NCBI GenBank assembly: GCA_965208125.1
Contig: OZ242320.1
Coordinates: forward strand, 5,312,001-5,376,000
Direction of reading: 5' to 3'
Origin: Candidatus Latescibacterota bacterium
GTDB lineage: Bacteria > Latescibacterota > UBA2968
DNA: 64,000 bases
This document shows, piece by piece, positions 6,135-54,732 of the stretch; the stretch's first letter is position 1, and each line of letters opens with the position of its first letter. The notes beneath the pieces were generated by a model, which saw only the letters and a list, made by a program, of their open reading frames with translations, had not been told where the DNA came from and searched no databases. The translations under genes and the position numbers were made by a program.

Positions 6135-6177
6135 GAAGGGAACTTATCAGAGGCCACGTTAACAAGGAAATCCAAAA

Positions 6178-7053: not shown

Positions 7054-7082
7054 TTCGATCACAATAAAAAAGAAGGTTATTA

Positions 7083-29236: not shown

Positions 29237-29238
29237 AG

Positions 29239-30279: not shown

Positions 30280-30282
30280 ATA

Positions 30283-31179
30283 CTATCCCTCCTCAATCTC
30301 TGCAATCAATTCACGGGATAATCTCCCACCATCCGACACACCCACACAATCCTCCAATTCATCAATATCCGATACCCCGCACAGCAACATCGACACCCGA
30401 TTGTCCGACAACAAATAGCGCAAAGCCGTGCGCGTCATGGGTTCATCTACACCTTCAACAATTTTCTCCACCCGCATTAAATTGTCATACAAATCGGCAA
30501 ATCGCCCCTGCGCTATCCACTGCCCCCTTTTTGAACCCAACAACCCCGCGTGCAATGGCGAAGCGCAAATCACGGCAACATCTTCTGATGCTGCCGTGGG
30601 AACCAATTCCTCGGTTGCTTCTCGCGTCAGCAAATCGTACTTGCAAAACGTAATCACCGAAACAAAAACATCGGTCTCTTTGAGCACCCGAGACATCAAA
30701 TCCAAATCAGAACCCGTCAGCCCAATATAATCGCAAATTCCCTGAGCCTGTATCTCCAACAACGCCTCTATAGTCCGCCCCGCATCAAACAACCCCGGCC
30801 ACCCGGCCTTTTCAGCCTCATGCACCTGCAAAAGGTGCACATGATCGCGCTTTAACCGCTTCAAACTCGCATCGAGACCGCGCCATACCGCATCGCGTGT
30901 ATAGTCAAATGGCTCGGGATAATACCCCACCTTTGTCGCCAGATAATACGGCTCTCGCACACCCGACAGCGCGACACCCAGCACCTCTTCGCTGCGCCCG
31001 CGTCCGTAAAGCGGTGCCGTATCGAAATAATTCACACCCAATTCCAGCGCCCGCTCCACCACCGCCACGCCATGCGACACCGGTTTTAGCCCCATCTCCG
31101 GACGCCCGTAGAACCACGACCCGCCAAGCCCTATCTCACTGACCTCCCATCCCGTTTTACCAAATATCCTGTATTCCAT
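30283..31179 (-). CDS. Aldo/keto reductase; start trimmed to 31179 (MEYRIFG)
   Basis: 'FGKTG..VS.IGLG', 'GVNYFDTAPLYG.G.SE', 'ATKVG', 'SL.RL..D...LLQVH'. Confidence 0.92.
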   Translation of the reverse strand: MEYRIFGKTGWEVSEIGLGGSWFYGRPEMGLKPVSHGVAVVERALELGVNYFDTAPLYGRGRSEEVLGVALSGVREPYYLATKVGYYPEPFDYTRDAVWRGLDASLKRLKRDHVHLLQVHEAEKAGWPGLFDAGRTIEALLEIQAQGICDYIGLTGSDLDLMSRVLKETDVFVSVITFCKYDLLTREATEELVPTAASEDVAVICASPLHAGLLGSKRGQWIAQGRFADLYDNLMRVEKIVEGVDEPMTRTALRYLLSDNRVSMLLCGVSDIDELEDCVGVSDGGRLSRELIAEIEEG

Positions 31180-31184
31180 TTTAA

Positions 31185-31859
31185 TCACCGATACCATCGA
31201 CTCAACGTGACATCCGACACAGAAAACGTATAGAGAATACGCAACACCCACATCTCTGCTACAGTGCGCATAAAGCCCCACTTGCGCCATCGCCGCGTGG
31301 AGCTGCATACCTGTGCATTGAGCATCACAAATTTTCCCACACGCACTACACGCGAGCAAAACTCGGAATCCTCAAACAACTGCAAGGATGGAAATCCCCC
31401 CAAAGCGTCAAAAGTCTCTCGCCGAACATAAATTCCCTGATCGCCATAAGTAATCCCCAAATACCGGGAGCGCAATGTACTCAAAAACGCAACCAACCGA
31501 AAACCAATCGTCTTCTCCGACAACCCGAGTTGAAACCGCCCCCCTACCACACCGGACACGCGCAACGAGTCGCGTATCAACATCACTCCATCAGGAGGCA
31601 AAAACGTATCGGCGTGCAAAAACAAAAACACATCGCCCGTAGCCCTTTTCGCACCGGCATTCATTTGCAGTGCCCGCCCTGCTTTCCCTGCCTGAACCCA
31701 TTGTACATCACCACGCGCCTCAACCACTTGTTGCGTGCCATCCGTACTCCCACCATCTACCACAATCAGTTCCACATCCTCAACACCACAAAATTGAGTC
31801 AGACACGAGCCGATAACGGTCTCTTCATTTAGAACGGGAATAATCACACTGATCTGCAC
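31185..31859 (-). CDS. GT2 glycosyltransferase, TIGR04283-like
   Basis: 'ISVIIPVLNE', 'VVDGGS.D', 'GRA.QMN.GA', 'FLHAD', 'YGDQG', 'GGF....FED', 'S.RRW'. Confidence 0.88.
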   Translation of the reverse strand: MQISVIIPVLNEETVIGSCLTQFCGVEDVELIVVDGGSTDGTQQVVEARGDVQWVQAGKAGRALQMNAGAKRATGDVFLFLHADTFLPPDGVMLIRDSLRVSGVVGGRFQLGLSEKTIGFRLVAFLSTLRSRYLGITYGDQGIYVRRETFDALGGFPSLQLFEDSEFCSRVVRVGKFVMLNAQVCSSTRRWRKWGFMRTVAEMWVLRILYTFSVSDVTLSRWYR

Positions 31860-31869
31860 ATCGACTCCA

Positions 31870-32412
31870 CTATTTTTTTATAACATCAAAAAACTGCCGA
31901 CCATAACTAATCAGTGAAACAACGAGAAACACAACACTCAGGCCAATCAGCGCGGGCTTGAGCACATCGGCATCCCATAAATAGGCCAAAAGCAACCCAC
32001 TCAGCACCAGCGTTGTGACCTTGCCCCAAAAATTGGAAGACAACAACACATCGTGTCGCTTGACCAGATACATCCCCCCCAAAAAAATCACCACATCGCG
32101 CAACAAAACGACCACAACCAGCCATACGGGCAGACCTTTGAACACAACCATGGCAATTGTAATCGCACCAACAGCCACTTTATCAGCCAGAGGATCGAGC
32201 ATCTTCCCCCACTGTGAAATTTCACCCCGCCTGCGCGCGAGCCACCCATCTATCCAATCGCTGACAATCATCACCACCACCACGCCGAATGCTTCCCATA
32301 CATAATTTGGGCCCAATGCAATAAGCCACACAGCGGGTACGATCAGCACCGCGCGCAACAAACTAACGGCATTTGACAGCGTCCAAAACCGACCGCGTTC
32401 AGAGCTTTCCAT
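31870..32412 (-). CDS. CDP-alcohol phosphatidyltransferase (PgsA-like); likely start 32412
   Basis: 'N..SLLR', 'SDWIDGWLARR....S.WGK.LDPLADK', 'RD', 'GK.TT'. Confidence 0.9.
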   Translation of the reverse strand: MESSERGRFWTLSNAVSLLRAVLIVPAVWLIALGPNYVWEAFGVVVVMIVSDWIDGWLARRRGEISQWGKMLDPLADKVAVGAITIAMVVFKGLPVWLVVVVLLRDVVIFLGGMYLVKRHDVLLSSNFWGKVTTLVLSGLLLAYLWDADVLKPALIGLSVVFLVVSLISYGRQFFDVIKK

Positions 32413-32420
32413 ACAACACC

Positions 32421-33161
32421 TCACGACAACATCAATTTCAGACCAATTCCCAGCACGAGAACCAGCACGCTGCGGTTAAACCACATAGGGGACAACCGCC
32501 GGTTCAAAAACAAACCGACCACAGCCCCCAGGAACAAAGCCGGCAACATCCACACATCCATCATCAGACTCTGGAAATTGATCAATCCCAAAAAAACATA
32601 AGGCGTCAACTTCAAAAGATTCAAAACAATGCCAAAAATCCACGCAGTACCCACAAACGTACGCCCGATCAGGCCCTGCGGCAACAAATACAACATCAAA
32701 ATCACGCCACCTGCAGAAACCAATGTGGAAACCACCCCCAAAGTCACACCAACGCCAAAACGCATCCACGGCCCCGGCGGTTTCACATTCACCAGTATCC
32801 GATCCCTCATGGTCTGTAGCACTGCAAAAATGCATGCCAGAGCACCTAACAGGCGCCGAAACCAGACCTCTGGCACAATATCCAGAATACCCGCGCCAAT
32901 CAAAATACCCAGCGCCATGCCGGGCATCAACGCCTTGACATGGTCCCCAACCCAATGCCCCCAGTAGTATCTCGCACTGATCACATCGGTTGCCAGAGAA
33001 AGCGGCAAAACAAGCCCCAGCGCGGACTTTGCGGGCACTGCGAGCGCGAGAACCGGCACAGCTACCACACCAATGCCACCGCCAAATCCCGCGCGCATCA
33101 CGCCAATCAAAAAACCACCAACTCCCAACACGACAAAATCAATTATATCCAAAAAATCCAC
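32421..33161 (-). CDS. TauE/SafE (TSUP) family membrane exporter
   Basis: 'GF.GG.G..AVP.L', 'LPL....D', 'LLK...Y..LG', 8-TM pattern. Confidence 0.85.
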   Translation of the reverse strand: MDFLDIIDFVVLGVGGFLIGVMRAGFGGGIGVVAVPVLALAVPAKSALGLVLPLSLATDVISARYYWGHWVGDHVKALMPGMALGILIGAGILDIVPEVWFRRLLGALACIFAVLQTMRDRILVNVKPPGPWMRFGVGVTLGVVSTLVSAGGVILMLYLLPQGLIGRTFVGTAWIFGIVLNLLKLTPYVFLGLINFQSLMMDVWMLPALFLGAVVGLFLNRRLSPMWFNRSVLVLVLGIGLKLMLS

Positions 33162-33166
33162 CTGTT

Positions 33167-33982
33167 TTAGCCATCAACAGTTCCCTTCGCCTCCCCTCGC
33201 CATATCTCAAACGCATTCGCCGCTGGTCCCACCAGAAACAGCGCGTAAAACGGCGCGTAAATCGCTTCATTCAAGCGCAAAATCATCTCGACAAAAGCCA
33301 CCAGAAACGCGACAATGCACTGCCCTTTTCGCGTCAACATAGTCGTTCTGGGATCTGTAATCATAAAAAAAATAAACAACTGATACATCGGCCCTGTAAT
33401 AGGCGCAATACTTGTCAAATACGCCTGCCCGGTAAACGCGCAACGGATGAGGGCAAAGGCCAAAAACGAAATAACATATACCGCGCAGATATGAAACCGC
33501 CGCAATCGCCAGAGTGCAGCACTTCCCAGAATCCAGATGATTACCATTACCGACAGAGTATTGCCCCACTGAATACTCAACCCCGCCACCACTTCAGGGG
33601 CGAGAAACAGCATAATACTCACCCCAAAATTGGATGGATTCCACAAATGCCTGCCGCGCCATCGCAACACATACTTAGATGCAATAGACAACACGCTGCA
33701 CAACACATAAGGCCAGACCAGAGGCGAGCGGATCAAAATCCCCACACTGATCCCGGTAATATACGCACTGACCAGCCCCGGCCACACACCCCACGTCAAT
33801 CGCCCCAGTGCAAATTCAGTCAGCACGCTACTCAGGATAGCTGTCAGCGTTTGCCTCAGACTCTCCAAAAAGCCAAAAGTAATCTGTCCCCCAATCAGAA
33901 TGCACGTAATCAATATTGGTGACAGATAGCGGCTTTGCAACCCCGTCCAGACCGATTTCCAGAACCCGCTCGCTCGATCCAT
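33167..33982 (-). CDS. RnfD/NqrB-fold membrane protein, enediyne E5/UnbU-like
   Basis: 'SAYITG', 'SKY......HLWNPSNFG', 'P.TG....LF.FFMITDP.TT'; much shorter than RnfD/NqrB and no SGATPL-type FMN-attachment motif seen. Confidence 0.75.
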   Translation of the reverse strand: MDRASGFWKSVWTGLQSRYLSPILITCILIGGQITFGFLESLRQTLTAILSSVLTEFALGRLTWGVWPGLVSAYITGISVGILIRSPLVWPYVLCSVLSIASKYVLRWRGRHLWNPSNFGVSIMLFLAPEVVAGLSIQWGNTLSVMVIIWILGSAALWRLRRFHICAVYVISFLAFALIRCAFTGQAYLTSIAPITGPMYQLFIFFMITDPRTTMLTRKGQCIVAFLVAFVEMILRLNEAIYAPFYALFLVGPAANAFEIWRGEAKGTVDG

Positions 33983-33983
33983 T

Positions 33984-35780
33984 TCAATTCTCTACAATCC
34001 GATGTATCCGCCGCACTTCGGGCGCGTAAAACATCTGTACCTGTCCCGACGGCCAGCGTATTGAAACGCTATCAACCGCCGTGTCCTCGCCTAAACCAAA
34101 ATGCAACGGACGCTGATTCTGCGCGGCATAGCCAATACCCCCCGACACCTCCTGCACCTGCACCTCGTCATTCCAGAACACCTGCACCCGCGCCCCAATC
34201 GCACTGCGATTGCTCTGCTGCCCAAACAGATCGAACCCAATCCAGTTTGTCTCTGCCCGCACTGTATTACGGTACAACAAAAGCGGTCCTCGCTGATTGG
34301 CCACCACCACGTCCAGCATCCCCCGGTTCCACAGATCTACCAGAGCCACAGCCCGCCCATCGAATCGATCCCGAACCCCCACACTCTGTGCTACCTCGAC
34401 AAATTGTCCCATCCCGTCGTTCACCCAAACGCACTTGGTCTGATGGCCTGCCAGACTTCTGCCTCGCATCGGCGGCCAGTTTTTTGCATCAGAGATAATC
34501 GCGCTGTGTCCGCCCGCCACCTGAGAAAAATCGTACCAGTAATTCCCATTTCCATCTGCTGAAACATACCCATTGGTCAAAACGAGATCCAGCGCCCCGT
34601 CGTTGTTCAAATCCCCAAACTGGGCGCCAAAACTCCATCCCCCCAGATCAACACCCATCGCCCCGGCCAAATTCTCAAACCGCAAGGTCTCGCCTCCCAG
34701 GGGCACCCATAAATTATTTCCCTGAATGAGAACGCCAGCCTGAGAAATATTGGTCTCGTAAATTGCCAGATCCCCCCGATTCAGCACATCGCCAAATGCG
34801 GCATTCATACCGCTCTTTGGCTGGCGCCCCACCCCGGCTTGCTCTCCCATCTCGACAAACCGCTCTCCGCCCTCATTCACATACAACTCGGAAATCCCGT
34901 AATCATTGGATAAAAACAGATCGGGAAACCCGGAGTCGTTCAAATCCGCTGCACCCACCGCCAGTGTCCACCTTCTGCTCGTGATCCCAACCCGCATAGT
35001 CACATCTTCAAATGTCCCATCGCCCGAGTTTTTCAACAAATACTTCCGTCCCCCATTATTCGCATACTCAAAACTCTCCGGCATCATCCGCGTGGTCTCC
35101 AAATCCCACAAATTCAGGGAATCGGGCCAGTAACCCGCCACAAAAATATCCAGATACCCATCGCAGTCGTAATCTACCCAGATCGCACTCCCGGCATTGA
35201 TCCACCTGGGCAAATCCGCTGTTTCAGTCACGCGCTCAAACACCTTTCCTTCCCGATTGCGAAACAACTCGGGACGGCCCCATTTATACAAAAATAAATC
35301 TTCGAACCCATCGTTGTCGTAATCACCCCACACAGACCCCATACTCACGCCCGCTCGATTCACATCCGCCACGCCCATTGTCTCAGCCACATCTTCAAAA
35401 CCCGTCCCTCCCAAATTGCGATAAAGCCGATTTAAACTGCCCCTGCGACTGCTGGTCACATACAAATCCTGCCAACCATCCCTGTCGTAATCCACCACCG
35501 AAACCGCCGCGCCCATCGACGCGATAATTGGCATAATATGATCCAGCTTTGCATCCAACACAGGAGCTTCATGTACAAAATTGATCCCCACCTGTTTTCC
35601 AACTTCTTTCAGGTAGAATCCATATCGTTCAGAGCCAGTGCCACTCACTTTCTCCACTTGCCCAACCCCCCACTTCATCGCGCCCAGTGCCACCAGCAAT
35701 AACCCAAAAAACAGCACCACCAGAATCCGCACGACGCGATTGGGACGTCTCTCCTCTATCCCGCTATCTTCCCGCTTCAT
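33984..35780 (-). CDS. CRTAC1-family FG-GAP + ASPIC/UnbV protein with N-terminal TM anchor, enediyne E4/UnbV-like
   Basis: Repeated DxDxDG loops; 'ASMGAAV...D', 'WTLA', 'NDYG', 'GWSFG', 'NWP....SLAG'; ASPIC 'SNRSAIGARV...GG.GY..Q....LHFGLG...IRWPSG'. Confidence 0.88.
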   Translation of the reverse strand: MKREDSGIEERRPNRVVRILVVLFFGLLLVALGAMKWGVGQVEKVSGTGSERYGFYLKEVGKQVGINFVHEAPVLDAKLDHIMPIIASMGAAVSVVDYDRDGWQDLYVTSSRRGSLNRLYRNLGGTGFEDVAETMGVADVNRAGVSMGSVWGDYDNDGFEDLFLYKWGRPELFRNREGKVFERVTETADLPRWINAGSAIWVDYDCDGYLDIFVAGYWPDSLNLWDLETTRMMPESFEYANNGGRKYLLKNSGDGTFEDVTMRVGITSRRWTLAVGAADLNDSGFPDLFLSNDYGISELYVNEGGERFVEMGEQAGVGRQPKSGMNAAFGDVLNRGDLAIYETNISQAGVLIQGNNLWVPLGGETLRFENLAGAMGVDLGGWSFGAQFGDLNNDGALDLVLTNGYVSADGNGNYWYDFSQVAGGHSAIISDAKNWPPMRGRSLAGHQTKCVWVNDGMGQFVEVAQSVGVRDRFDGRAVALVDLWNRGMLDVVVANQRGPLLLYRNTVRAETNWIGFDLFGQQSNRSAIGARVQVFWNDEVQVQEVSGGIGYAAQNQRPLHFGLGEDTAVDSVSIRWPSGQVQMFYAPEVRRIHRIVEN

Positions 35781-38700
35781 CGCCTGTCATTCCTCAGTGC
35801 ATGATCAAACCAATCGGGCGTCACATACCGCGTGTGAAACCGCTGCCAATCCCCTGCATTGCGCTTAAACACCGGATCATCTTCAAGCGTTTCAGGCGCG
35901 CGATCATAAGTCAAAACCCCGTGCGCAGGCAAAGGCAACACTGTCGTTGAAAAAGCCGTATTATAATCGCCGTCTTTAACCCATCCATCGCCTTTCAACA
36001 CAAAATCCCGTATCTGCTTCCCTGGATCTGGCAAAGCCTCAAATTGCAATTGGATTTCATCTCCCGCATTCACAATCGCATATCGATCATCGACCTGTGC
36101 TAGCAATGGCTCTACATCTCCGTATCGCGTGTAATATCCCACGAGATCTCGCCACATTTGCGAAGTCCCGCCAAGCGCGTGATAATTCGGCACCTCGGGC
36201 GAACTCGCATCTGTCTCCGCCACCTGGGAAAACCCGCGATAACGCAACCGCGCGTGCTCCAAAGGGACAGATTGAACCGTCATCACACTGTCTTCAAGTG
36301 GCACGGCCCACGCCAAACGATCCCAATAAATCTCCAAATTGGTCTGCAATCTAAATTTTCGGGGAACATCTCGCGAAAAAACACCGCTCAGATCGATCAA
36401 CACCGTCTTGCGCTTTCCGGCTGGAAACCCCAGATCTGGATGCACGACGCGCCAATCAGTCCCATCAAATACATGTAGCGAAAGGCCCTGAGGTGGCGGA
36501 TGGCTACCCTGTCCCAGAGCCACATTGATCGAACTATCCGTCGGATGAATCCATCCCTGACCGACCAGCCACAGAGGTCCTTCCTTAGGCACCTCGTCTC
36601 CCACCATCACCTCCACATAGTGTTCCCGCGTCACCCCTTGATACGCACCCCGCTCAAAAGTATCCACATACTGTCCATCCCGCACCCGCACCCTATCGGT
36701 CACGTCGCGCCCCCGATCATCTTTCACAATAGCAAAGGGGCGAGGCTGCGTAGTCGCGTAAATCTCGAGCGATGGAGAAACCCGGGCAAAACGCTCATCC
36801 ACAAAAATCGACGTCCCCTCGGGATGATCAACTGCAACGAGAGACACCCAATCGACAAAATGCGTCTCCCACAATTCACCCGTAATCCGTATATCGTACA
36901 CCCCGTTTTGCGCGACCAACTGATCGCCTCTGACCTTCACCCAATCTTCCGTCTGAGCAATACCCGCAACCACCTGGGCATTGATTCGCATCCCCAGAGG
37001 CGACCGCCACAAAAAATCCGTTACAAACCCCATCTCCGATCCATTATACGCAAAAACCCAGGGGCATGACCCCTTCAAGCGTTGTACGGCACGCACCACC
37101 TGATCCACCTCCAGATCAAACTCCACCTGAGGCATCCCATTGGGCCACACAATCCGCACGAGATCTGCTCCTGTATAGGTCCCCAATCCAAAATGCACCA
37201 CCGGATCCGTCACCACTTGCTTCTGATAGAACGCGCCCGAGCGCAACTCCACCTCGGCACCCAAACCCAGTGCATTGATCCGCCCATCGCCCAGTGCCTT
37301 TCCGCCCAGGGGGCGAATCGCCTGCCAGTGATACGCCAAATCGCTCTGATTCACCAATTGCAACGCCTCGCCTGCATCCGAAACACCCAGCAAATCGAGC
37401 CGACCATCATCCGTCAAATCCGCCACACCGGTCACGCGCGCTTTCAGATCCAGAGAATGATAAGCCATTTCTGACGCCAAATAGGCGCGTTTGCCAAACA
37501 CCAGATCCAATGCACCGTTATTATCCAGATCCGCTATGAAAATCGGAACAGACCCAACTGTTGAATCACTCTGTATTATTTTGCGTATCTCCCCTTGCGA
37601 CACAGCGATCACAGCACCATCTCGATCTAAAATCACACGCTCTACACGCCCGTCTCGATCCAGATCTCCTGCGCCTATCGCAATCCCGTTCACCGCCCTT
37701 TTCGCCCCTGGCGTAAATACCCCCGCCCGTTCATTAATCGCCTCAATCAATTGCCCCTCTCGATCCAGCATCGCCGCATCGGGATCGCCATCTCCATCAC
37801 AATCTACCCACACAAAACCCCTCAATCCATCTACATTACTGAAAGGTTCTTGCGCCACAAACGAACCATCCCCATTATTTTGCAACACGAGCGGAGATCC
37901 ATCAAAACGCCCCAACACAAAATCGACATCTCCATCCATCTCTATATCCGCTCCCCACACGCCAGCCATCTCTTCTTCCAACCCGATGGAACCAGTCACA
38001 TCCTCAACCTCGCCATCCTCAGTGCGTCGGAACAATCGAAAACCCTCTGTCCCCACCAGTGCCAGATCTAACGCAAAATCGTTATTCCAATCAACTGTCA
38101 GCATCCCACCCATCTCCGATACCCCTGGAAAATCGAGCGCAATCCCCTCCATCCCCCACACTTGAGAAGCACTCGCCGCAACCACCTCTACCTCTTCTTT
38201 GGACCAGAAAGGCTTGAGCACCTGCCAGTCACTTCCCTCCAAACCCGCAACGGGTTCGGGTTCAAAGTGCATGTTTAAATCAGCAGGCGCTGGCATAGCC
38301 TGGGGCGCATTGAACTTCAAAAATTCAACCACGGGATCTCCCAGGCGTTCAGCCGGCACAATCAGCGCATCCAGAGCGCGTCGGTACACCGGATCGCGCA
38401 ACAACACATTGTGCAAAAACATCGTTTGCAAAGCTACCTCACTCCCCCCTTCCATCTCGCCTTGCAAACTGCGCAACTGCACCTGCGCCGCATCCGGCCA
38501 GCCTCCTACCCACTCGCTCAACTTCTCCACCGACGCGCGCAGAGCCTCTTCATCGCCCCGTTTGCCCGCCTGCCTTGCCCTCTCGACCCACAGCACGGAA
38601 TTGTCCGGCACCTGTTTGATCAGGGTTTCCAACTGTGCCCAGACCTCCTGCTCACTACCCCCTCCTCCTCGCCGTTCAAGTTCCTTCATCAGCGCGTATT

Positions 38701-39097
38701 GCGCCTTCACAAGCCCCTGTTGCGCCGCTTCCTCAAAAAACGCGATAGCAGCATCGGATTGCCCTCTGCTGCGCTCAACCAATCCCTGTAACATCGCGAT
38801 ATCGCCACTTTCGGGCATCAGTGAACGCGCTGTCTTCAAGTCATTTGCAGCCCCGTCGTAATCCCCGCGCCGCAACCGCAACACCCCGCGATTTGCCCAC
38901 GTAGCAGGCTCGTCGGGTTCCATTGTAAGAGCACGGCTCAAACTGGCATCTGCCCGATCAAAAGCACCTACCTCCAGCGCAAACACACCCGTATAGAATG
39001 CAGAAATATAATCCGCGCTCGGCGTAGCCATCTTCTCCTCTCCGCATCCAAAGCCCAACACCATCAACAACCCGATCGTGCGACGAATATCAAGCAT
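35777..39097 (-). CDS. Large lipoprotein: TPR + FG-GAP repeats + ASPIC/UnbV + uncharacterised C-terminal domain
   Basis: Lipobox-like 'LGFGC'; TPR 'P....WANRG.L.LR.G.YD.A'; DxDxDG loops; 'VHFGLG....D..RI.WPNG'; 'KGSCP', 'E.WET.F.D...L.AVDHP', 'GFPAGK.KT', 'GWVKD.D.NT'. Confidence 0.85.
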   Translation of the reverse strand: MLDIRRTIGLLMVLGFGCGEEKMATPSADYISAFYTGVFALEVGAFDRADASLSRALTMEPDEPATWANRGVLRLRRGDYDGAANDLKTARSLMPESGDIAMLQGLVERSRGQSDAAIAFFEEAAQQGLVKAQYALMKELERRGGGGSEQEVWAQLETLIKQVPDNSVLWVERARQAGKRGDEEALRASVEKLSEWVGGWPDAAQVQLRSLQGEMEGGSEVALQTMFLHNVLLRDPVYRRALDALIVPAERLGDPVVEFLKFNAPQAMPAPADLNMHFEPEPVAGLEGSDWQVLKPFWSKEEVEVVAASASQVWGMEGIALDFPGVSEMGGMLTVDWNNDFALDLALVGTEGFRLFRRTEDGEVEDVTGSIGLEEEMAGVWGADIEMDGDVDFVLGRFDGSPLVLQNNGDGSFVAQEPFSNVDGLRGFVWVDCDGDGDPDAAMLDREGQLIEAINERAGVFTPGAKRAVNGIAIGAGDLDRDGRVERVILDRDGAVIAVSQGEIRKIIQSDSTVGSVPIFIADLDNNGALDLVFGKRAYLASEMAYHSLDLKARVTGVADLTDDGRLDLLGVSDAGEALQLVNQSDLAYHWQAIRPLGGKALGDGRINALGLGAEVELRSGAFYQKQVVTDPVVHFGLGTYTGADLVRIVWPNGMPQVEFDLEVDQVVRAVQRLKGSCPWVFAYNGSEMGFVTDFLWRSPLGMRINAQVVAGIAQTEDWVKVRGDQLVAQNGVYDIRITGELWETHFVDWVSLVAVDHPEGTSIFVDERFARVSPSLEIYATTQPRPFAIVKDDRGRDVTDRVRVRDGQYVDTFERGAYQGVTREHYVEVMVGDEVPKEGPLWLVGQGWIHPTDSSINVALGQGSHPPPQGLSLHVFDGTDWRVVHPDLGFPAGKRKTVLIDLSGVFSRDVPRKFRLQTNLEIYWDRLAWAVPLEDSVMTVQSVPLEHARLRYRGFSQVAETDASSPEVPNYHALGGTSQMWRDLVGYYTRYGDVEPLLAQVDDRYAIVNAGDEIQLQFEALPDPGKQIRDFVLKGDGWVKDGDYNTAFSTTVLPLPAHGVLTYDRAPETLEDDPVFKRNAGDWQRFHTRYVTPDWFDHALRNDRR

Positions 39098-41078
39098 TGT
39101 GCTCCTTCCATCCCGGTATCGAAATATCCATCCGCCGCTCAGGCGCGTAGATCCTATCGCCCTTATAAGGCGTATCCTGCGTCAGAATATAAATCGCGCC
39201 ATCGTGTACATACGTAATCTCATCCCGCGGATCTCCCACCACATCCTCCACAACCCCACCCGCCCAATCAAACGGCATGCCCTCGCACACGGGTTTGATC
39301 ACCTTGCGACACTCTGCATCGTAAAACCCGAATGACTCCGCGCTGGTACTGATAAACAACAACTCTTGCCCATCGCCTGCCCAGTTCACAGCCGGTCCCC
39401 CCTGGCTCATGTTATCCGGCTCCATCCGGGACAGCGGATCCCCCTGCCCACTCACCAGATTCATAATCCCATAAGTTCCCCATCTGTCGCCCATCCACAT
39501 CTCTAACCCCGGCAAATCGGGTCTGAAATTCCCCGCGTAAATCCCCTGCACATGCCCATAGCGGAGGTGACTCAACAAAGTGCCATCCCGCGCATCCACC
39601 AGGAAAAACCCCGGATCGCTCCCCGCAATCCCGACCTCTGGTCCATTGCTCTCATCCCCATCCAATTCTCCAAAAGAAGCGTGGTCAATATGCCCTGCAC
39701 CGCCAGAATCCTCAATGTACTCCGCCCCCTCCATTGTCCAGAGATGATTTCCATCTCCATCGTACAAATCGTAACCGGGCAAAATTTCATCCCGCCCGTC
39801 GCCATCTACATCGTAAAACCAGATATACATCCCGTACCACGCATTGTGCGCATCCTGTCGCCAGCGCAAATTCAAATTTTCGTCAAATGCCCAGATCGAA
39901 TACCCTGTGCCCGCGCCATCGCCATCTCGCAAAATCAAATCCTGCGCCTTCTCCGTCTTTCTAATTTTACACGGCCAGATCACCCTGAGCGAATGCAAAA
40001 CATCTCCCATGCTCGCATTCCTGTATCCCCGATACGGTCCCGTCCTCGGCAGTTCTGTTTCCGCTGTCACCTCACCCGATTCTCCACTCACCAACTTTAA
40101 CCGATCATCCTCAATACCGATAAAGTCCTCTACCCCATCTCCATCCAGATCGTGAACCTCAGACCTTTGCAACCCTTTTGCAGCGGGAAAAGTCCGATCG
40201 TATTGCACTTCCCCATCAAAATTCAGGCACACGACGCGCACGCCTTCATCCGTCTCCTTTTGCAACACAATTTCCTTTTGCCCCGCCCCTCTAAAATCGC
40301 CGTATCGAACCCCACACGGCCAGAACTCGCCAATGTCAATCCGCTTCCACAGCACGGGCTTCGGATACTTCTCTGCCTCCTCTGCCACCTCTTTTTCATA
40401 GGCGTCCAACCGACTCACATACGCGGCATTGCCATATGCACTCGTTGTAACGCGCACCGCGCGCATGCGACTTCGCGTATTTGTACGCACGCCCACCTTC
40501 CCTGTCGGAAAGCGATCGTCATAAGCCACAAATGCCTGCTCCCCATTCACATAACACGCAAACCGCTCGCCCTCACACACCACTTTTAGCGTGTAATACT
40601 GTCCCCTATCAAATCCGTTGGGCAGATCCGCCAGCATAGTCCACGCCTCGTCTTCTCTTCGATAGAGCACAAACCGATCAAACCCCTCCATACAAAAATA
40701 ATAATACCGCCTCAAATCTTGATACCGCACCATAACCCCCGACCGGGCGACAATCGCATGGGGGTCGTCATTGCCCGGCTGGGTATATGCGTTCAACTGC
40801 CGCACCTGTGCTTCCACCGTGTAATCCCCCCACAGCGGCTCGCCCGCCACCAGGCACCGATCCGACTTGGCAGTGTGCTCCAACACCTCTGTGTCGTCAT
40901 CTTTCACCACCCGATAATTACTCAGCATATTCCACTTAGGGGGCGCGACCAGCGCATTCCCCCAGCCCTTGAAATATTGCTCCTCGATACTCTGATCCGG
41001 TTCTGTCTTATCCAGCACCGTACCCAGCGGACATCCCGCCAGATCAATCTCCGCCAGCAATCGCTCATTGTTTGCCAT
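39090..41078 (-). CDS. DUF1080/ConA-like N-domain fused to Ca-binding beta-propeller (PL11/YesW-like); likely start 41078
   Basis: 'W.DYTVEA.V','G...RY.D...YY','Y.LKV...G......VNG......D.....GKVG'; 'DLDGDG','DVDGDGRDEI','GHIDH','GHVQ...GNFRPDLPGLE','DV.GDPRDE'; no signal peptide. Confidence 0.6.
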   Translation of the reverse strand: MANNERLLAEIDLAGCPLGTVLDKTEPDQSIEEQYFKGWGNALVAPPKWNMLSNYRVVKDDDTEVLEHTAKSDRCLVAGEPLWGDYTVEAQVRQLNAYTQPGNDDPHAIVARSGVMVRYQDLRRYYYFCMEGFDRFVLYRREDEAWTMLADLPNGFDRGQYYTLKVVCEGERFACYVNGEQAFVAYDDRFPTGKVGVRTNTRSRMRAVRVTTSAYGNAAYVSRLDAYEKEVAEEAEKYPKPVLWKRIDIGEFWPCGVRYGDFRGAGQKEIVLQKETDEGVRVVCLNFDGEVQYDRTFPAAKGLQRSEVHDLDGDGVEDFIGIEDDRLKLVSGESGEVTAETELPRTGPYRGYRNASMGDVLHSLRVIWPCKIRKTEKAQDLILRDGDGAGTGYSIWAFDENLNLRWRQDAHNAWYGMYIWFYDVDGDGRDEILPGYDLYDGDGNHLWTMEGAEYIEDSGGAGHIDHASFGELDGDESNGPEVGIAGSDPGFFLVDARDGTLLSHLRYGHVQGIYAGNFRPDLPGLEMWMGDRWGTYGIMNLVSGQGDPLSRMEPDNMSQGGPAVNWAGDGQELLFISTSAESFGFYDAECRKVIKPVCEGMPFDWAGGVVEDVVGDPRDEITYVHDGAIYILTQDTPYKGDRIYAPERRMDISIPGWKEHNA

Positions 41079-41149
41079 GTCATCCTCTCCCAAAAAATGA
41101 AAATTACATCGACGCGGTGTCTCCTATCCCGCCATAAATAAATCTAAAA

Positions 41150-43096
41150 TCAAAATACATGCACCACATGCCCCTGTCCCGGAAACCAGACCATATCCAC
41201 CACAAAAGACAGCGTTACTGCCAGGGCATATCCAACCAACAGACCGATAAAAAAAGGCTGCCACTGGCGGTACAACACCATCCCCCCTCCCTTTAGCAAC
41301 AACCCCTTGATCGCCCAAACCAGAAAGGCTGAAAACGCCAGTTCTCGTGTAAAATTAGTGCCGGGAATGGTCAGCCCGATCGGGTGAAGCGGCCACCTCG
41401 GAAACCGGTAACGCAAAAAACTCAGCAGTCCCATCAGCGCGGCACCAATTCCGAACAACATCAGTCGAGTACTGTCCGTACCCTGTGGTGTCTTCATCTT
41501 GGCAACTGCCGCATTAAACGCCGCTTTGTTCCCACTTCGATAGGGCCACACATCAAAATGATAGGCTCCGTGGACATAGGCCAGATGAAGCGTTAATACA
41601 AGCGACACCACTGCACTCAGCGCCAGACCAAATACCACGGCCCAGAGCAGAAGGCGTCGATTGCCACGCACAAAATCTGCCAGCCGAGCTCCGTGTACCA
41701 ACCCGGGCATAAACAGTCCCCGGTAGGAAACCAGCGCATAGGAAAATGCCAATGCCGTCATCGTCGCCCCCGACAGAGTACGCGTACCCAGAGTAGCCAT
41801 CGTAAAAGCCTGACCGCTCAATGGGGTGCGCACATAAATCAGCCCTGTCTCCGCCACGATCTTGGCTACTCCCACATACGTCACCAGCGTTGCTAAAACA
41901 CACAGAATGGCTGCACCATAGGCCATCCCCGCCGCGTGTAGCCACAACACCAGATAACCCAGTCCTATAAACATCCCCCATACCGCCGCCCGGTAGCCCA
42001 TCATCTCGTCCGAATCTCCGGCGTTCCGATCCCCTCTAAAAGCACTGCGGAATGCGGCGTAAAAGTGCCTCCGGGCCATCCACAATCCCCAGCCCACAAA
42101 TACGGTCAACGCCCCGAATCCCTCCCAGCCAGCCACCTCGTATGACGAGCCCCAACTATCGGAAATCTTCAAATCAAATCCCAGCCGTCTTAAGATACCC
42201 ACCTGGAATACATTCAACACATAAAAAAACCAGACGCTAAACAACACTTCCAGATTGGCAAAATACACAAACCCGATCGTGAACAGATTGAGCTTGATCC
42301 GGATTCCAGGAAAATTGCGGCCCAGTGGTAGTGACGTTCCAGACCGGTAACTGCCCGTGGGAAATTTAGGCACCCCAGGATAAAAATACGACAGGATGTT
42401 CCAGGCAATCATCCCAAATCCCGTCACAGCGCCCGCCCAGAACAGCCTTCCCCCAATCATCCGTATCCCGTGTTTCGGTGCCGAGACCAGATCTACCGCT
42501 ACATTTGCCAGCGGATAGACCAATCGCTCGTGATCCACCCACTGCCGCCGCAACAAAACCGCCAGACAAATCGATACACACGCCGCTGCACCGATAAAAC
42601 TCAGCCACCAGAGCAGTGGTAAAACCCACTCTCCCCACGGCACAGCCTGTCCGGGCGGCAATCCCTCAAAAAACCATGTCATTGCCCGCCCGTCTTCCGA
42701 GGGCGCCATCCACGGTCTGATGTGATTGTGCAGATAAGGCGCCCACCCATTCTCCGGCGTAGCAAAATAAAATGGTGCCGCAAGAATCCCCAACAAATAT
42801 CCCGGTAGTCCGTCCGCCGCCGGAATCACTGCACTGGCCAACCCCATCGTCAATGCCACCAGCAAATCCGAACGCCCGAATGCCCACTCGGGTTTCTGCG
42901 CTTTGAGCACCGGATTCACAATCAGGACACACAGTACAAAGGGGACAAATAGGGCCAGCGCAAAATTACTCATGTTCAACCGGGAGGCCCGCACAATAAA
43001 CTCAGAATAAGTAGCCCAAACGCTCACCAGCACCACAAAAAACGCCCCCAGTACCACCGCACGAACCTTAAACTGATCGTCTCGCACCTGCCCCAT
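41150..43096 (-). CDS. DUF6785/DUF6784-type multi-pass membrane protein (putative transporter), paralog 1
   Basis: 'RAV.LG', 'PFYFATPEN.W', 'RRQW...ERL.YPL', 'YFAN..VLFS.WFF', 'AKIVAE.G', 'WPLHPIG', 'K.GG..LY....PFF.GL..G'. Confidence 0.75.
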   Translation of the reverse strand: MGQVRDDQFKVRAVVLGAFFVVLVSVWATYSEFIVRASRLNMSNFALALFVPFVLCVLIVNPVLKAQKPEWAFGRSDLLVALTMGLASAVIPAADGLPGYLLGILAAPFYFATPENGWAPYLHNHIRPWMAPSEDGRAMTWFFEGLPPGQAVPWGEWVLPLLWWLSFIGAAACVSICLAVLLRRQWVDHERLVYPLANVAVDLVSAPKHGIRMIGGRLFWAGAVTGFGMIAWNILSYFYPGVPKFPTGSYRSGTSLPLGRNFPGIRIKLNLFTIGFVYFANLEVLFSVWFFYVLNVFQVGILRRLGFDLKISDSWGSSYEVAGWEGFGALTVFVGWGLWMARRHFYAAFRSAFRGDRNAGDSDEMMGYRAAVWGMFIGLGYLVLWLHAAGMAYGAAILCVLATLVTYVGVAKIVAETGLIYVRTPLSGQAFTMATLGTRTLSGATMTALAFSYALVSYRGLFMPGLVHGARLADFVRGNRRLLLWAVVFGLALSAVVSLVLTLHLAYVHGAYHFDVWPYRSGNKAAFNAAVAKMKTPQGTDSTRLMLFGIGAALMGLLSFLRYRFPRWPLHPIGLTIPGTNFTRELAFSAFLVWAIKGLLLKGGGMVLYRQWQPFFIGLLVGYALAVTLSFVVDMVWFPGQGHVVHVF

Positions 43097-45232: not shown

Positions 45233-45271
45233 AATACACCTCCTTGAATGACTTCTGCAACACCATCACCG

Positions 45272-46234: not shown

Positions 46235-46258
46235 AGCACACCTCCTGCGCGGCTGATG

Positions 46259-47563: not shown

Positions 47564-47584
47564 ACTCGGCCTCCTTTAAATACA

Positions 47585-49195
47585 TCAATTCTCTTCCACA
47601 ACCACAACGCGGTCCACCCCAACATCTTCCAACACCTGCACGCGCCCACTCACCCAGCGCACCTCAATTCGATCCACGCGACGCGCATTGCCCAGCCCAA
47701 AATGCAGCCGCAAATCGCTCGCCGACAAATAGCTTGATTGGCTCCGAACCTCGCGCACCTGGATCTTACCCCCCGCGCTCACATGCACCACTGCCCCAAT
47801 CCCATCCCTATTTGAAAATCCACTTCTCGCTTCCCGCATCCCCCCCACCAGTTTTACAACGATCCAGTGTCCCGCGTCCCTACCCTCATTGCGGAACACC
47901 CGCGCACGCTTTCCCGAATGCAACACCACCAGATCCAGATCGCCATCTCCATCCAGATCGCCAACCGCCGACCCGCGACTCACCCCCGGCACCTCAACAC
48001 CCGCATTGACCACCTCAAATCGCCCATCTACATTGCGAAATATTTGATCCGCCTGTGAATAGGACTCAGCCCTGGAAAACGCCTGTACATTCGGAAAAAT
48101 ATGCCCATTTGCCACAAACAGATCCAGATCACCATCGTTGTCATAATCAAAAAAATGAGTGCCAAATCCCAGAGGCAGCAGAGACGCTCCGGCAATTCCG
48201 GTTGACACACTTTCCTCCATAAAAAACCCGCCCGCCGAACGCTGATAAATCGCATTGGTCTCGTAGGAGAAATTCGTCACAAAAATATCTGATCGCCCGT
48301 CCCCATCCACATCCCCCACATCGACCCCCATACCCGCCTGCGTCCGGCCCTGCACATTAAACGCCACACCCGCCTCTACACCCACATTCTCAAACCGTCC
48401 GCCCGTGTTGCGGTACAAAAAATTTGGCGTCGTATCATTTGCCACATAGAGATCGGTATCCCCATCCCCATCGTAATCCAAACTCACCACCCCAAGCCCC
48501 TTGCCCGAAGAATCCGCCACACCCGCCTCAAAGGACACATCTGTAAATAGCCCATTCCCCTCATTCCGATAAAGCAAATCCGGCGCACCCTCAAAATAGC
48601 CCGGATCGCAATACGTGCGAACGCCCACCCGTTCACAATGCGGGTCGGTTTCCACACGATATGTCAAATAGCGCACCACATACAAATCCAGATCGCCATC
48701 CCCATCCGCGTCAAAAAAAGTGGCACCAGCAGACCATCCACCGCCCTCCACACCTGCCTTCTTTTCCACAAAACCGCCACGACCATCATTCTGATACAGC
48801 ACATTGGCACCATAACCCGTCGTATAAAGATCGAGATCGCCATCGTTGTCATAGTCCCCAACCGTACACCCCATCCCATACCCCCCACCCGGCGCACCTG
48901 GTACAGCAGTAAAGCGAAATCCGCCATCGTTTCGATAAAGCGCGTTCTCGCCACCCGCCGGCCCGTGTTTTCCATTGACAAAATACAAATCCAGATCGCC
49001 ATCCCCATCCGCATCAAACATTGCACAGCCCGACCCCATGGTCTCTAAATAATGCCAATTCCCCCGCGCGCCGGTCCGATGCACAAACGAGACACCAGAC
49101 GCTTCTGAGACCTCCACAAATTGCTCTGCGGCAACAGAACCTGAACTTAAAAGCAAAAAAAGAATGCCAATGACTCTAATCACTAATACTCCCAT
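47585..49195 (-). CDS. Secreted CRTAC1-family FG-GAP + ASPIC/UnbV protein (generic type); start about 49195 or 49183
   Basis: 'ETMGSG...FD.DGDGDLDLYFVNG','GYGMG...GDYDNDG','GKGLGV','VANDTTPN','AGMGVD.GD','SRG.A.GD.D.DG','SNRDGIGA','SYLS....LHFGLG'. Confidence 0.9.
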   Translation of the reverse strand: MGVLVIRVIGILFLLLSSGSVAAEQFVEVSEASGVSFVHRTGARGNWHYLETMGSGCAMFDADGDGDLDLYFVNGKHGPAGGENALYRNDGGFRFTAVPGAPGGGYGMGCTVGDYDNDGDLDLYTTGYGANVLYQNDGRGGFVEKKAGVEGGGWSAGATFFDADGDGDLDLYVVRYLTYRVETDPHCERVGVRTYCDPGYFEGAPDLLYRNEGNGLFTDVSFEAGVADSSGKGLGVVSLDYDGDGDTDLYVANDTTPNFLYRNTGGRFENVGVEAGVAFNVQGRTQAGMGVDVGDVDGDGRSDIFVTNFSYETNAIYQRSAGGFFMEESVSTGIAGASLLPLGFGTHFFDYDNDGDLDLFVANGHIFPNVQAFSRAESYSQADQIFRNVDGRFEVVNAGVEVPGVSRGSAVGDLDGDGDLDLVVLHSGKRARVFRNEGRDAGHWIVVKLVGGMREARSGFSNRDGIGAVVHVSAGGKIQVREVRSQSSYLSASDLRLHFGLGNARRVDRIEVRWVSGRVQVLEDVGVDRVVVVEEN

Positions 49196-49226
49196 CCATC
49201 TGCGTTTATCTGCGAAAACGCTCAAA

Positions 49227-50729
49227 TTATTCGCGTTTTTTTTCTGTGGATGCTTTTGCCGCCATTGCCTCGGCCTCTGCTTTCCGCCCTGCCCGACCGT
49301 AGAGAATTGACAACTGGAGATATAACTCGCGCGGATCCTCTGCTCCTTCAATCACCTGGTCATACAACGCCCTTGCCGCGTCCATATCTCCCGCCACCGC
49401 ATGTGCCACACCCAATCGCACCAGCAACCCCGCAGAATACGCAATCTGATCTGCCTTGATCTGATATGTCGAGATACACTTATTCAGATGTCCCGTATTC
49501 GCCTGTGCCTGACTGATCTGATAGTAAATATAGAACGCGGCATAGGCAATCGGATCCATCGCCACAATCCGCTCATACCCCTCTACCACATCACGCGACA
49601 ACCCATCGGCACACAAAAACATATCTGCCTTGCGTCTCAATGCCTCATCGGATACCATACCCCCTTCACCCAGCGCAAAAGCCGCATCATAAGACTGCCG
49701 CGCCCGATCTACATCTCCCAATGCCTGATAGGACAGCCCCAGAGCCAGATAGACCACGGGAACCTCCGGACTAAACCGCCATGGCAAATCCGGATCTTCC
49801 ACCAGAGTGACCGCTTCCCGGTAAACCTCTATTGCCTTCTCGTGCTGCCCCAGCCTCACAAACCTATCTGCAAAATCCAGTAAATCAGCTATCTTATCAA
49901 ATCTCACGGGAAACACATACTGATCTCGAACCGCGTGCCGGTGGCGTTTGTCAAAAAATTTAAACGTCTCCCACTCTTGTCGCGCCAACAGCGAATCGCC
50001 CAAATTTCGATACGCCTGTGCCAGTCCATAATGGGGTTTGGGATCTTCAAAATCGATTTCCGTCGCCCGTTTGTATGCTGATGCAGCAGATGCATAATCG
50101 CCCTGCATCAGCAGAATTTTTCCCACCTCTAAATGCGCCTCTTTGCGATCCGAAAACATATGGACAGCCTTTTGAAACGCCTCCAGCGCCTCGTCGTAAC
50201 GCTCCTGTTTAACAAGTGCAAGACCATATCCGTAAACCGCCAGATCATCCGTTGGATCCCGCTCCAAAACAGCCCTAAACGCCTCTTCCGAATCGGAATA
50301 CACCCCTGCCAATTCAGCTACAAAACCCAGATTGCGGTAAAAGAGTGTCGCATCGGGTTCTATCGCAATCGCCTGCTCAAATGCTTCAATCGCCGGACTG
50401 TAATTTCGCTGAAAAAAATACACAAATCCCAGATCGTTGTGCGCTCCCGCATCCTCTATTTTCAGATGGATGGCCCGTCGCAAATTCTCTCCCACCTCGC
50501 GCAGATCGCCCTGCCGCGTCACAATCTGGAGCCATCCCAAAAATCGGTACGCATCCGCCGCTGTCGAATCGGCTGCGATCACATCCTCACACCGCATCAT
50601 TGCCCCGTAATAATTGCCCTTGATAATATCGACCAGCACCGAGTCCATCTCCGATGGCTCAACTGCCCCAACATTTGGAACAAAAAGCATCCACATAGCC
50701 AGAGTGTAACCAAACCTTTTCAAAATCAC
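49227..50729 (-). CDS. Exported TPR-repeat protein; start about 50723-50732
   Basis: Signal-peptide-like N-terminus after GAGGAGG RBS; many TPR units ('AHNDLG..Y.....Y..AI.AF..AI...P','P.PHYGLA.AY..LG'). Confidence 0.8.
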   Translation of the reverse strand: MILKRFGYTLAMWMLFVPNVGAVEPSEMDSVLVDIIKGNYYGAMMRCEDVIAADSTAADAYRFLGWLQIVTRQGDLREVGENLRRAIHLKIEDAGAHNDLGFVYFFQRNYSPAIEAFEQAIAIEPDATLFYRNLGFVAELAGVYSDSEEAFRAVLERDPTDDLAVYGYGLALVKQERYDEALEAFQKAVHMFSDRKEAHLEVGKILLMQGDYASAASAYKRATEIDFEDPKPHYGLAQAYRNLGDSLLARQEWETFKFFDKRHRHAVRDQYVFPVRFDKIADLLDFADRFVRLGQHEKAIEVYREAVTLVEDPDLPWRFSPEVPVVYLALGLSYQALGDVDRARQSYDAAFALGEGGMVSDEALRRKADMFLCADGLSRDVVEGYERIVAMDPIAYAAFYIYYQISQAQANTGHLNKCISTYQIKADQIAYSAGLLVRLGVAHAVAGDMDAARALYDQVIEGAEDPRELYLQLSILYGRAGRKAEAEAMAAKASTEKKRE

Positions 50730-50737
50730 CAACCTCC

Positions 50738-53598: not shown

Positions 53599-53644
53599 AG
53601 CGTCCTCCTTTCTGATGCCACCCCACCTCCTCTACCTCCTCTGC

Positions 53645-54529: not shown

Positions 54530-54732
54530 AGTTCCTCCCTCACTTGAATCAGACCATCCATATCTAAATGAACCAATCCCTTGCATAGTTTATCGTCTCT
54601 CGATCCAAAATTCAAGCCAAATACCACAAGCTATGCCTTGTGTGAGACAAACTGATAGCCTATATTTCTTTTATACATATCCAGAACCCAGATCTTACCT
54701 GTACACTATCGTCTCGTATGCGGAGGCTCATC

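Follow-up and report, generated by a model that had tools for sequence, protein, structure and literature searches.

The closest described relatives of the genes discussed here are the E4 and E5 genes of enediyne biosynthesis, which, to our knowledge, are fixed members of every enediyne cassette. True enediyne cassettes are present on Streptomyces plasmids, where tblastn located four of them, including one on SGLP1 of Streptomyces globisporus C-1027 (L081); all four carry E3, E4, E5, and the polyketide synthase (PKS) gene PKSE in this order, and three also carry the thioesterase gene E10. The three extra genes of the cassette, E3 to E5, were still described as 'of unknown function' in 2023 (PMC9992847). 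The E4/E5 pair is already known, yet unexplained, and public annotation automatically labels such genes 'enediyne E4/E5'. KEGG matches to E4 and E5 in organisms not known as enediyne producers have been filed under antibiotic synthesis (PMC9723772, PMC10861553). Here, we describe a relative of this pair in a 64,000-nucleotide stretch of the genome of a Candidatus Latescibacterota bacterium (assembly GCA_965208125.1, contig OZ242320.1, positions 5,312,001 to 5,376,000), hereafter called the window. Three adjacent genes on its minus strand encode a protein of 1106 amino acids (BIG), a propeller protein of 598 amino acids (E4L), and a membrane protein of 271 amino acids (E5L).

What is new is the occurrence of the pair with BIG and without a synthase, together with the model in which E4L docks on E5L. 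A literature search, mainly outside subscription journals, turned up neither a description of an E4/E5 module that lacks a PKS nor one of E5 as a protein of the RnfD fold. On balance, we lean toward reading the trio as one machine of the inner membrane and periplasm that is independent of any polyketide synthase.

Organization and Conservation of the Trio

BIG (35777..39097, minus strand) is an envelope protein with an N-terminal signal that resembles a lipobox, a TPR region, an FG-GAP propeller, an UnbV_ASPIC domain, and an all-beta C-terminal region of 432 amino acids. It is followed on the same strand by E4L (33984..35780), a membrane-anchored FG-GAP/UnbV_ASPIC propeller that tree analysis assigns to the enediyne-E4 clade, and by E5L (33167..33982), a membrane protein of the RnfD/NqrB fold and the enediyne-E5 clade that lacks the attachment loop for flavin mononucleotide (FMN). 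The stop codon of BIG and the start codon of E4L overlap as ATGA at 35780-35777 on the minus strand, and the E4L/E5L junction reads TGA-a-ATG at 33986-33980, with a gap of 1 nt. The initial annotation had presented the three reading frames as translationally coupled, and its coordinates, the ATGA overlap, and the 1-nt gap all match the sequence.

At least 560 species genomes gave confirmed E5L relatives, and the best 80 of these at least 560 loci were analyzed. By label they belong to Acidobacteriota (57), Latescibacterota (9), Planctomycetota (3), Verrucomicrobiota (3), Armatimonadota (3), and Bacillota (1), with four loci unlabeled. Upstream sequence of at least 5.5 kb is available for 73 loci; E4L adjoins E5L in 70 of these, and 66 have BIG upstream of E4L. 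A lack of co-conservation elsewhere, which the initial annotation had named as a ground for refutation, is not what these loci show. The order and strand of the trio are constant across at least five phyla, and 65 of 71 related loci show a 4-nt overlap between the stop of E4L and an in-frame start of E5L. In two loci (L031, L055), BIG-type proteins are encoded downstream instead.

Profile searches of 61 genomes of the phylum gave a similar picture. Fifteen of them carry E5L, and all 15 also encode the C-terminal domain of BIG; the arrangement is canonical in 12, the genes are convergent neighbors in one, and they lie far apart in two. Within the genus, 12 genomes have both E5L and the BIG domain and three (91-98% complete) have neither.

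E5L, an RnfD-Fold Protein Without the Flavin Loop

The AlphaFold model of E5L (pLDDT 81.2) has the ten-helix fold of RnfD and NqrB. Foldseek matched it to RnfD with a probability of 1.00 (9eri_D, E 1e-6, TMq 0.70; 8rbq_D, TMq 0.74), then to NqrB (TMq 0.60-0.64), and then to urea transporters (TMq 0.4-0.49). At the level of sequence the relationship is distant: a PDB sequence search with E5L reaches RnfD at E 0.1 at best, Pfam recognizes NQR2_RnfD_RnfE (PF03116) with 33.4 bits over residues 140-240 only (100 of 296 model positions), and the score against TIGR01946 rnfD is 27 bits, where the cut-off is 207. In the 61 phylum genomes, PF03116 scores are bimodal, with 25-35 bits for E5L-type proteins and 240-410 bits for true RnfD/NqrB. 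The genome itself encodes a separate true RnfD/NqrB at C1:1470824 (338 bits). No other rnf or nqr genes accompany the trio among the 12 open reading frames (ORFs) from 27839 to 45232, which Pfam assigns to other families.

The covalent FMN of NqrB sits on a threonine (PMC4348036), and NqrB and RnfD are flavinylated by ApbE (PMC8238504). In our alignment the corresponding loop, D..(S/T)xATPL, is present in seven of seven RnfD/NqrB rows and gapped in 11 of 11 E5-type rows. E5L lacks the loop for covalent FMN and therefore would not carry electrons on a flavin as the Rnf and Nqr subunits do.

What E5L does keep are two central half-helix motifs and a set of invariant polar residues near the periplasmic mouth. 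The first motif, NPSNFG (residues 115-120; 33623..33640, minus strand), is invariant in the E5L alignment, which comprises 43 of 80 homologues, and is preceded by His112. Every cassette, enediyne, Serratia, Sinorhizobium, and Metabacillus row has this histidine, and RnfD/NqrB have Asn in its place. The second motif, FMITDP (residues 206-211; 33350..33367, minus strand), recurs in RnfD/NqrB as FMATDP. The sequence motifs quoted in the initial annotation (HLWNPSNFG, FMITDPRTT, ASMGA, WTLA, NDYG, GWSFG, and NWP...SLAG) all occur in the translations, but its use of FMITDP.TT as a mark specific to E5 does not hold, as FM(I/A)TDPxT is also found in true RnfD/NqrB; NPxxxG and FMxTDP are common to both groups. 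Among the polar residues that are invariant in the cassette and not kept in enediyne E5 are Q138, N141, H164, Y200, Q201, E232, and R236. A thiol-disulfide relay through E5L was considered and dropped, given a single near-invariant cysteine (C95).

Relatives of E5L number at least 8000 protein clusters at E<=0.001, of which the best 120 are 57-94% identical to it. JGI labels them either 'enediyne biosynthesis protein E5' or 'RnfD/NqrB'. A few single cases are recorded here for their setting. The E5L orthologues of L033, L044, and L074 are ~63% identical to E5L and lie at ~10001 (L033 and L074) and ~6757 (L044); the neighbors in L074 include a B12-radical SAM protein, a GFO/IDH-type oxidoreductase, and an amidohydrolase. 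In the same genus as the window, an E5L orthologue at G018:C1:1865751-1866524 contains an in-frame TAG, for which a pseudogene or an assembly error is possible. On a Metabacillus plasmid (L082 7312-8699), an AhpC/TSA redoxin gene overlaps an E5-like gene by 4 nt; the latter is 31% identical to E5L, has no E4 nearby, and lies a few kb from a mer operon.

The E4L Propeller and Its Predicted Complex With E5L

In Pfam, E4L consists of five FG-GAP_3 repeats and an UnbV_ASPIC domain (residues 527-591; 34008..34202, minus strand; 73.1 bits), and its C-terminal domain matches the human CRTAC1 structure 9etn (E 4.5e-14). A transmembrane anchor is predicted from the sequence at the N-terminus (residues 17-36; 35673..35732, minus strand). 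E4L scores 155 bits against SgcE4 (E 2e-44) and only 98 bits against the generic CRTAC1 of the window at 47585-49351. Three insertions set the E4 clade apart in an alignment with enediyne E4 and generic CRTAC1: they are present in six of six cassette E4L rows and in five of five E4 rows from PKS-linked clusters (four from Streptomyces and one from Serratia), and in none of five generic CRTAC1 rows.

A prediction of the complex between E4L and E5L scored 0.74, against 0.00 for the best of three controls. This score is reached by 58 of 80 solved complexes and by two of 110 mismatched pairs, a benchmark that is approximate here since custom alignments were supplied, with 37 of 71 homologues for E4L and 43 of 80 for E5L. 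The model runs agree in at least 85% of contacts, with a partner pLDDT of at least 78. We know of no comparable solved complex, and for this reason the result is unlikely to come from the memory of the model. On the side of E4L, the modeled interface involves the N-terminal helix (residues 13-36), which touches helices of E5L, and the segments 235-239, 319-321, 347-354, and 415-436; the side of E5L includes the periplasmic loops 123-146, 184-199, and 236-241. Segments 235-239, 347-354, and 415-436 fall in the insertions found only in the E4 clade. The last of them belongs to the insertion of residues 405-436 (YWYD...NWP; 34473..34568, minus strand), which we regard as a predicted docking element for E5L. 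The modeling supports binding of E4L to E5L. Since all aligned E4 rows share the insertions and none of the generic CRTAC1 rows has them, the E4 clade would be defined by the very elements that dock onto E5 in the model.

Placement Among Enediyne Proteins

The initial annotation held that the two proteins are closer to enediyne E4 and E5 than to generic CRTAC1 and RnfD, and both trees agree. Cassette rows were hand-picked from the 80 loci (18 for the E4 tree and 23 for the E5 tree), and both trees come from quick searches in which SH-aLRT is the only measure of support. Of the 34 rows in the E4 tree, 19 are cassette E4L proteins and form one clade (support 99); the sister group of this clade is enediyne E4 together with a Serratia homologue (five rows, support 100). 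The joint clade has a support of 95 and excludes nine of ten generic CRTAC1 rows; the tenth (fourth_L055) falls just outside on a very long branch. The E5 tree has 42 rows, and in it a long branch with a support of 100 separates nine true RnfD/NqrB rows from a side that holds cassette E5L (24 rows), enediyne E5 (four rows), and the homologues from Serratia, Sinorhizobium, and Metabacillus. The over-long read-through ORFs L117 and L118 were omitted from this tree, and two rows entered as 'RnfD' (L094, L119) fall on the E5 side on very long branches and are probably wrong neighbouring ORFs, hence the RnfD count of nine. Consistent placements came from tblastn, in which the best match of real E4 queries in the genome is E4L and real E5 queries match E5L alone; E5L is 27% identical to SgcE5 (E 2e-15). 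An NCBIfam scan matched no E4- or E5-specific model.

These placements bear on the simplest alternative, in which an Rnf/Nqr subunit D happens to lie beside generic CRTAC1-type adhesins with no joint function, as the public names 'RnfD subunit' for E5L relatives and 'CRTAC1 family protein' for E4 relatives would suggest. It is refuted by the score of 27 against 207 bits for TIGR01946, the missing FMN loop, and the separate true RnfD/NqrB of the genome, and likewise by the lack of nearby rnf/nqr genes, the separation of both proteins in the trees, and the tight coupling and conservation of the genes; we give it a probability close to nil.

The Missing Synthase

The genome is a single contig of 5.75 Mb and 96.4% complete, and the initial annotation had noted that neither PKSE nor a thioesterase or E3 lies in the window. 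This extends to the whole genome. Pfam found no PKS domains in the 12 scanned ORFs from 27839 to 45232. For E3, a genome search with PF08012 gave no matches but its control was silent too; a backup tblastn with seven real E3 (DUF1702) proteins also gave none. Three real queries for the E10 hot-dog thioesterase had no tblastn match in the genome. Four PKSE queries led, with 28-30% identity, to a genome locus at a distance of 3.4 Mb, which encodes a type I PKS that is modular and reducing and includes an ER domain. This locus (G000:C1:1948163-1958224; L126 2163-12224) encodes KS-AT, followed by a protein of 2533 amino acids with ER, KR, and KS-AT, and is unrelated to the trio. Queries for E3, E10, and PKSE also had no matches in the 80 related loci.

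A separate observation concerns a plasmid of Serratia proteamaculans (L125), on which positions 1-7879 bring together a ketosynthase-domain gene, an FAD oxidoreductase, a glycosyltransferase, DUF1702 (E3), a LuxR gene, and E4-type and E5-type genes; this gammaproteobacterium combines E3, E4, and E5 with a synthase other than PKSE.

Could E4L and E5L nevertheless serve a polyketide synthase encoded elsewhere in the genome, in a cryptic enediyne or polyyne biosynthesis? Their sister position to genuine enediyne E4 and E5, the type I PKS at C1:1948-1958 kb, and the Serratia plasmid with its non-PKSE ketosynthase speak for such a link. However, the seven E3 and three E10 queries remained without a match in a single-contig genome of high completeness, the PKS is of the modular reducing type, distant from the trio and only remotely similar to PKSE, and the related loci likewise lack E3, E10, and PKSE. 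This explanation is largely refuted and in our view highly improbable. Given a genome without the antibiotic synthase, the module probably has a housekeeping role in the envelope.

The Large Envelope Protein BIG

The first 18 residues of BIG (39044..39097, minus strand) form a hydrophobic signal that ends in LGFGC, a probable lipobox. Most of the 61 long BIG ORFs likewise have a signal followed by a cysteine, and those of Planctomycetota have a transmembrane anchor or helix instead. BIG is thus probably a lipoprotein, or membrane-anchored in Planctomycetota, as judged from the hydrophobic LGFGC stretch and from the signal and cysteine of the homologues. Next comes a TPR region (~residues 32-194; 38516..39004, minus strand), recognized by Pfam TPR_16, TPR_9, and TPR_2, with the NCBIfam TPR models under their cut-off. 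The propeller and UnbV_ASPIC part (~residues 320-668; 37094..38140, minus strand) comprises three FG-GAP_3 stretches, the best at residues 384-441, and UnbV_ASPIC at residues 612-668.

The C-terminal domain (residues 675-1106; 35780..37075, minus strand) belongs to no Pfam family. These last 432 residues are ~50% identical across phyla, and the alignment, which includes 45 of 65 homologues, has a mean column identity of 67%. The structural model is all-beta (pLDDT 85.7, pTM 0.88). VIA-align places jelly-rolls of the CBM32, CBM35, and DOC types on the middle part (Z 7-9, model residues ~105-260, ~120 residues), a middling match by which this part may resemble ligand-binding modules. Foldseek against the PDB gave nothing clear (best E 1.2e-4, TMq 0.23), and the clusters retrieved from the ESM Atlas were all either unnamed or UnbV_ASPIC. 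PDB sequence matches to replication factor C chains (best E 0.006) were taken as chance. A profile of the domain finds 4944 representatives at E<=1e-3; among the best 150 matches, most are 1100-1250 amino acids long and carry the domain at the C-terminus, and the shorter ones are probably fragments.

Accessory Genes in Other Lineages

In Acidobacteriota, Planctomycetota, and Verrucomicrobiota loci, a recurrent set of genes precedes BIG on the same strand. It includes a NapH/MauN-like membrane protein of 490-520 amino acids with CxxCP and CxxCxxCxxxCP motifs and a weak match to TIGR02163 (E 3e-9; 43 of 80 loci), a YtkA/FixH-like protein (28 of 80), a His-rich four-helix protein (33 loci), and a protein of ~210 amino acids (29-34 loci) with an AxA cleavage site, an invariant histidine at the mature end followed by (N/E)GPPFP, and a C-terminal anchor, hereafter the N-terminal-His protein. 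In two loci this protein is fused in frame to BIG (L043 4054-8175 and L048 4057-8175; 1372-1373 amino acids), and the topology of the fusion fits a two-helix hairpin between two periplasmic parts. NapH-like proteins have been described as modular electron links to periplasmic reductases and oxidases (PMC8238504). Examples of the accessory set are found in L045 1381-4562, L019 1979-4630, L025 1843-4473, L043 1891-4041, and L078 2116-4615. In a locus labeled Latescibacteria (L035 3807-4768), rhodanese and MauE/DoxX genes lie immediately upstream of BIG, a hint of a redox partner. The redoxin gene coupled to the E5-like gene of the Metabacillus plasmid (L082) is a hint of the same kind.

FixG/CcoG, YtkA/CtaK relatives, and N-terminal-His proteins may handle copper. 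The trio follows YtkA/FixH-like, NapH/FixG-like Fe-S membrane, and N-terminal-His genes in many loci of the three phyla, the last of these genes is fused to BIG in two loci, and one may therefore think of a machine that receives, reduces, or inserts copper (or another metal) for an envelope target. However, these three kinds of genes were not found in the genome of the window, E4L, E5L, and BIG lack a conserved His/Met/Cys cluster typical of copper sites, and Pfam finds no match to CopC or DUF1775 in the N-terminal-His protein. We consider copper handling quite improbable as the function of the trio.

A non-redox machine for transport is another reading, in which E5L, by its fold a member of the RnfD/NqrB/urea-transporter class, would be a channel that conducts an ion or small solute, E4L its periplasmic cap or gate, and BIG a tether to the outer envelope. 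Urea transporters are indeed the next structural matches of E5L after RnfD and NqrB, the FMN loop is lost and pore-type half-helix motifs are kept, neither E4L nor E5L shows a redox cofactor motif, and 16 of the 80 loci have a gene for an AlgE-type porin upstream. Nevertheless, the module recurs beside genes of the electron-transfer type in other lineages, one would hardly expect a pure channel to be fixed in a biosynthetic cassette such as that of the enediynes, and no substrate-binding or ATPase partner is conserved, which leaves this reading unlikely.

Proposed Function

For the reading of the trio as one PKS-independent machine of the inner membrane and periplasm, the following mechanism can be drawn from the models. 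The N-terminal helix of E4L would pack on E5L and hold E4L in the membrane, and its FG-GAP propeller, of the Ca type, would cap the periplasmic face of E5L by means of the three insertions restricted to the E4 clade. E5L may act as a conduit or binding pocket that hands a membrane-soluble or small substrate to the propeller, and BIG may capture or deliver a partner molecule. The step would be redox-linked, with electrons exchanged through lineage-specific partners. On this view, enediyne E4 and E5 would have been recruited from such a housekeeping module. The conduit or pocket leading to E4L, the handling of a partner by BIG, and the redox-linked step, taken jointly, are a tentative proposal, possible but well short of probable. 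A more far-reaching form, in which the trio is the ancestral housekeeping form of enediyne E4/E5 and the flavin-less RnfD-fold protein with its docked propeller is a catalytic platform in the membrane that oxidizes a hydrophobic endogenous molecule (e.g., a lipid, an isoprenoid, or a quinone) on the outer side of the inner membrane, with BIG as handler of substrate or product, is speculative and on present evidence unlikely. Halide chemistry, an earlier idea, was dropped, as none of the data bear on halide.

Several observations weigh against the single-machine reading and its mechanism. The sample of loci is heavy in Acidobacteriota and the loci are related, so that the counts are not independent. 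Three of the 80 loci (L033, L044, L074) have E5L with neither E4L nor BIG nearby, and L073 lacks BIG; in two of the 15 phylum genomes with both, E5L and BIG are hundreds of kb apart. Fifteen genomes of the phylum without E5L (e.g., G059, G011, G024, G055) hold BIG-like proteins of 1073-1249 amino acids (185-349 bits), and for this reason relatives of BIG can work without the E4L/E5L pair. The score of the complex is the model's own confidence and no measurement, and the CBM-like match of BIG, with its Z of 7-9, is in a range rated common or middling. No cofactor site is evident: E4L is nearly devoid of invariant His and Cys, H70 being the sole invariant one, and of the polar set of E5L the enediyne E5 proteins keep only His112. 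The NapH-like, YtkA-like, N-terminal-His, and His-rich genes were not found in the genome of the window by tblastn, so that the case for a redox link draws on other phyla.

The PKS-free version is far more widespread and better conserved than the enediyne form, which points to a general function in the envelope as the probable source from which the pair was recruited. Metagenome surveys that read KEGG matches to E4 and E5 as a potential for enediyne antibiotics may therefore be miscounting a housekeeping module. PKS-free systems also offer a non-toxic way of finding the activity of E4 and E5, and the docking of the E4-specific insertions on E5L is a concrete structural hypothesis for the trio as well as for the enediyne pair. 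If the trio were indeed the ancestral platform, working it out in a bacterium amenable to experiment would uncover the chemistry still missing from the account of how the enediyne core is formed.

Neighboring Genes in the Window

All called genes from 27839 to 54586 are on the minus strand, and the gene upstream of BIG (39090-41093) overlaps the start of BIG. A scan for promoters and terminators gave no excess over shuffled sequences (16 vs. 16.0 expected and 21 vs. 22.0 expected) and thus defines no operon ends. A TauE/SafE-family gene (32421-33161) begins 5 nt past E5L and is syntenic in five of the six closest loci, but its conserved association with the trio does not extend to other phyla. 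The conservation of several further neighbors is confined to the six closest loci, namely TauE, RGL11-like, DUF6785, TPR-redoxin, CDP-alcohol transferase, GT2, and amidase genes; a GFO/IDH-type oxidoreductase and an aldo/keto reductase occur in these six and in one stray locus each.

The minus-strand region 39090-54586 is a long array of envelope genes with recurring themes. DUF6785+DUF6784 membrane proteins at 41150-43096 and 50738-52687 each adjoin FG-GAP/RGL11-like propellers and TPR proteins, a TolB-like propeller and a PhyH-type dioxygenase are also present, and a ResA-like TPR-redoxin, which hints at a periplasmic redox partner, is encoded three genes upstream of the trio. The generic CRTAC1 at 47585..49351 (minus strand) is of the 'fourth-gene' type, i.e., ~41% identical to the product of the gene immediately 3' of E5L in many Acidobacteriota loci. 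It clusters with these Acidobacteriota fourth genes (support 99), its closest relative being a paralogue from its own genome, and may be a displaced accessory of uncertain membership. A separate TPR protein (49227-50777) overlaps it, and the pair mirrors the N-terminal two thirds of BIG.

A run labeled metatranscriptomic (word share 0.07) yielded contigs ~91-94% identical to the window that span TauE/E5L/E4L (32018-34643), E4L/BIG (35278-36799), and BIG and the upstream gene (36974-39969). As such libraries may contain DNA, these bridging contigs give a hint of the presence of a relative only.

Comparison With Known Systems

Four described systems resemble the trio in part. The CRTAC1/ASPIC family, represented by human CRTAC1 (9etn), shares the combination of FG-GAP repeats and UnbV_ASPIC with both E4L and BIG, but it lacks the three insertions of E4L, and the generic CRTAC1 paralogues of the window and the genome fall outside the group of E4L. 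RnfD and NqrB are like E5L in fold (TMq 0.70-0.74 and 0.60-0.64, respectively) and in the NPxxxG and FMxTDP motifs, whereas E5L has no FMN-threonine loop, scores far below the family cut-offs, and has no rnf/nqr neighbors.

The Serratia proteamaculans plasmid comes nearer to the window, with an E4-type propeller followed by an E5-type membrane protein, both in the enediyne clade, and a TauE/SafE gene nearby (L125 10444-11481); in contrast to the window, it keeps DUF1702 (E3) and a ketosynthase gene. SgcE4 and SgcE5 of S. globisporus C-1027 show the same domain make-up as E4L and E5L and the same order, E4 then E5, with overlapping or abutting genes. Enediyne E4 has the specific insertions of E4L, enediyne E5 has the His112 of E5L, and the enediyne and cassette proteins form sister clades in both trees. 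The two systems nonetheless share only 27-31% identity, and the window is without E3, PKSE, and E10, with BIG in the upstream place. E5L is ~100 amino acids shorter than enediyne E5, as it lacks the loop after helix 2 and the C-terminal tail. Compared to the enediyne form, the PKS-free form of the cassette is much better conserved, with roughly 60% identity across phyla.

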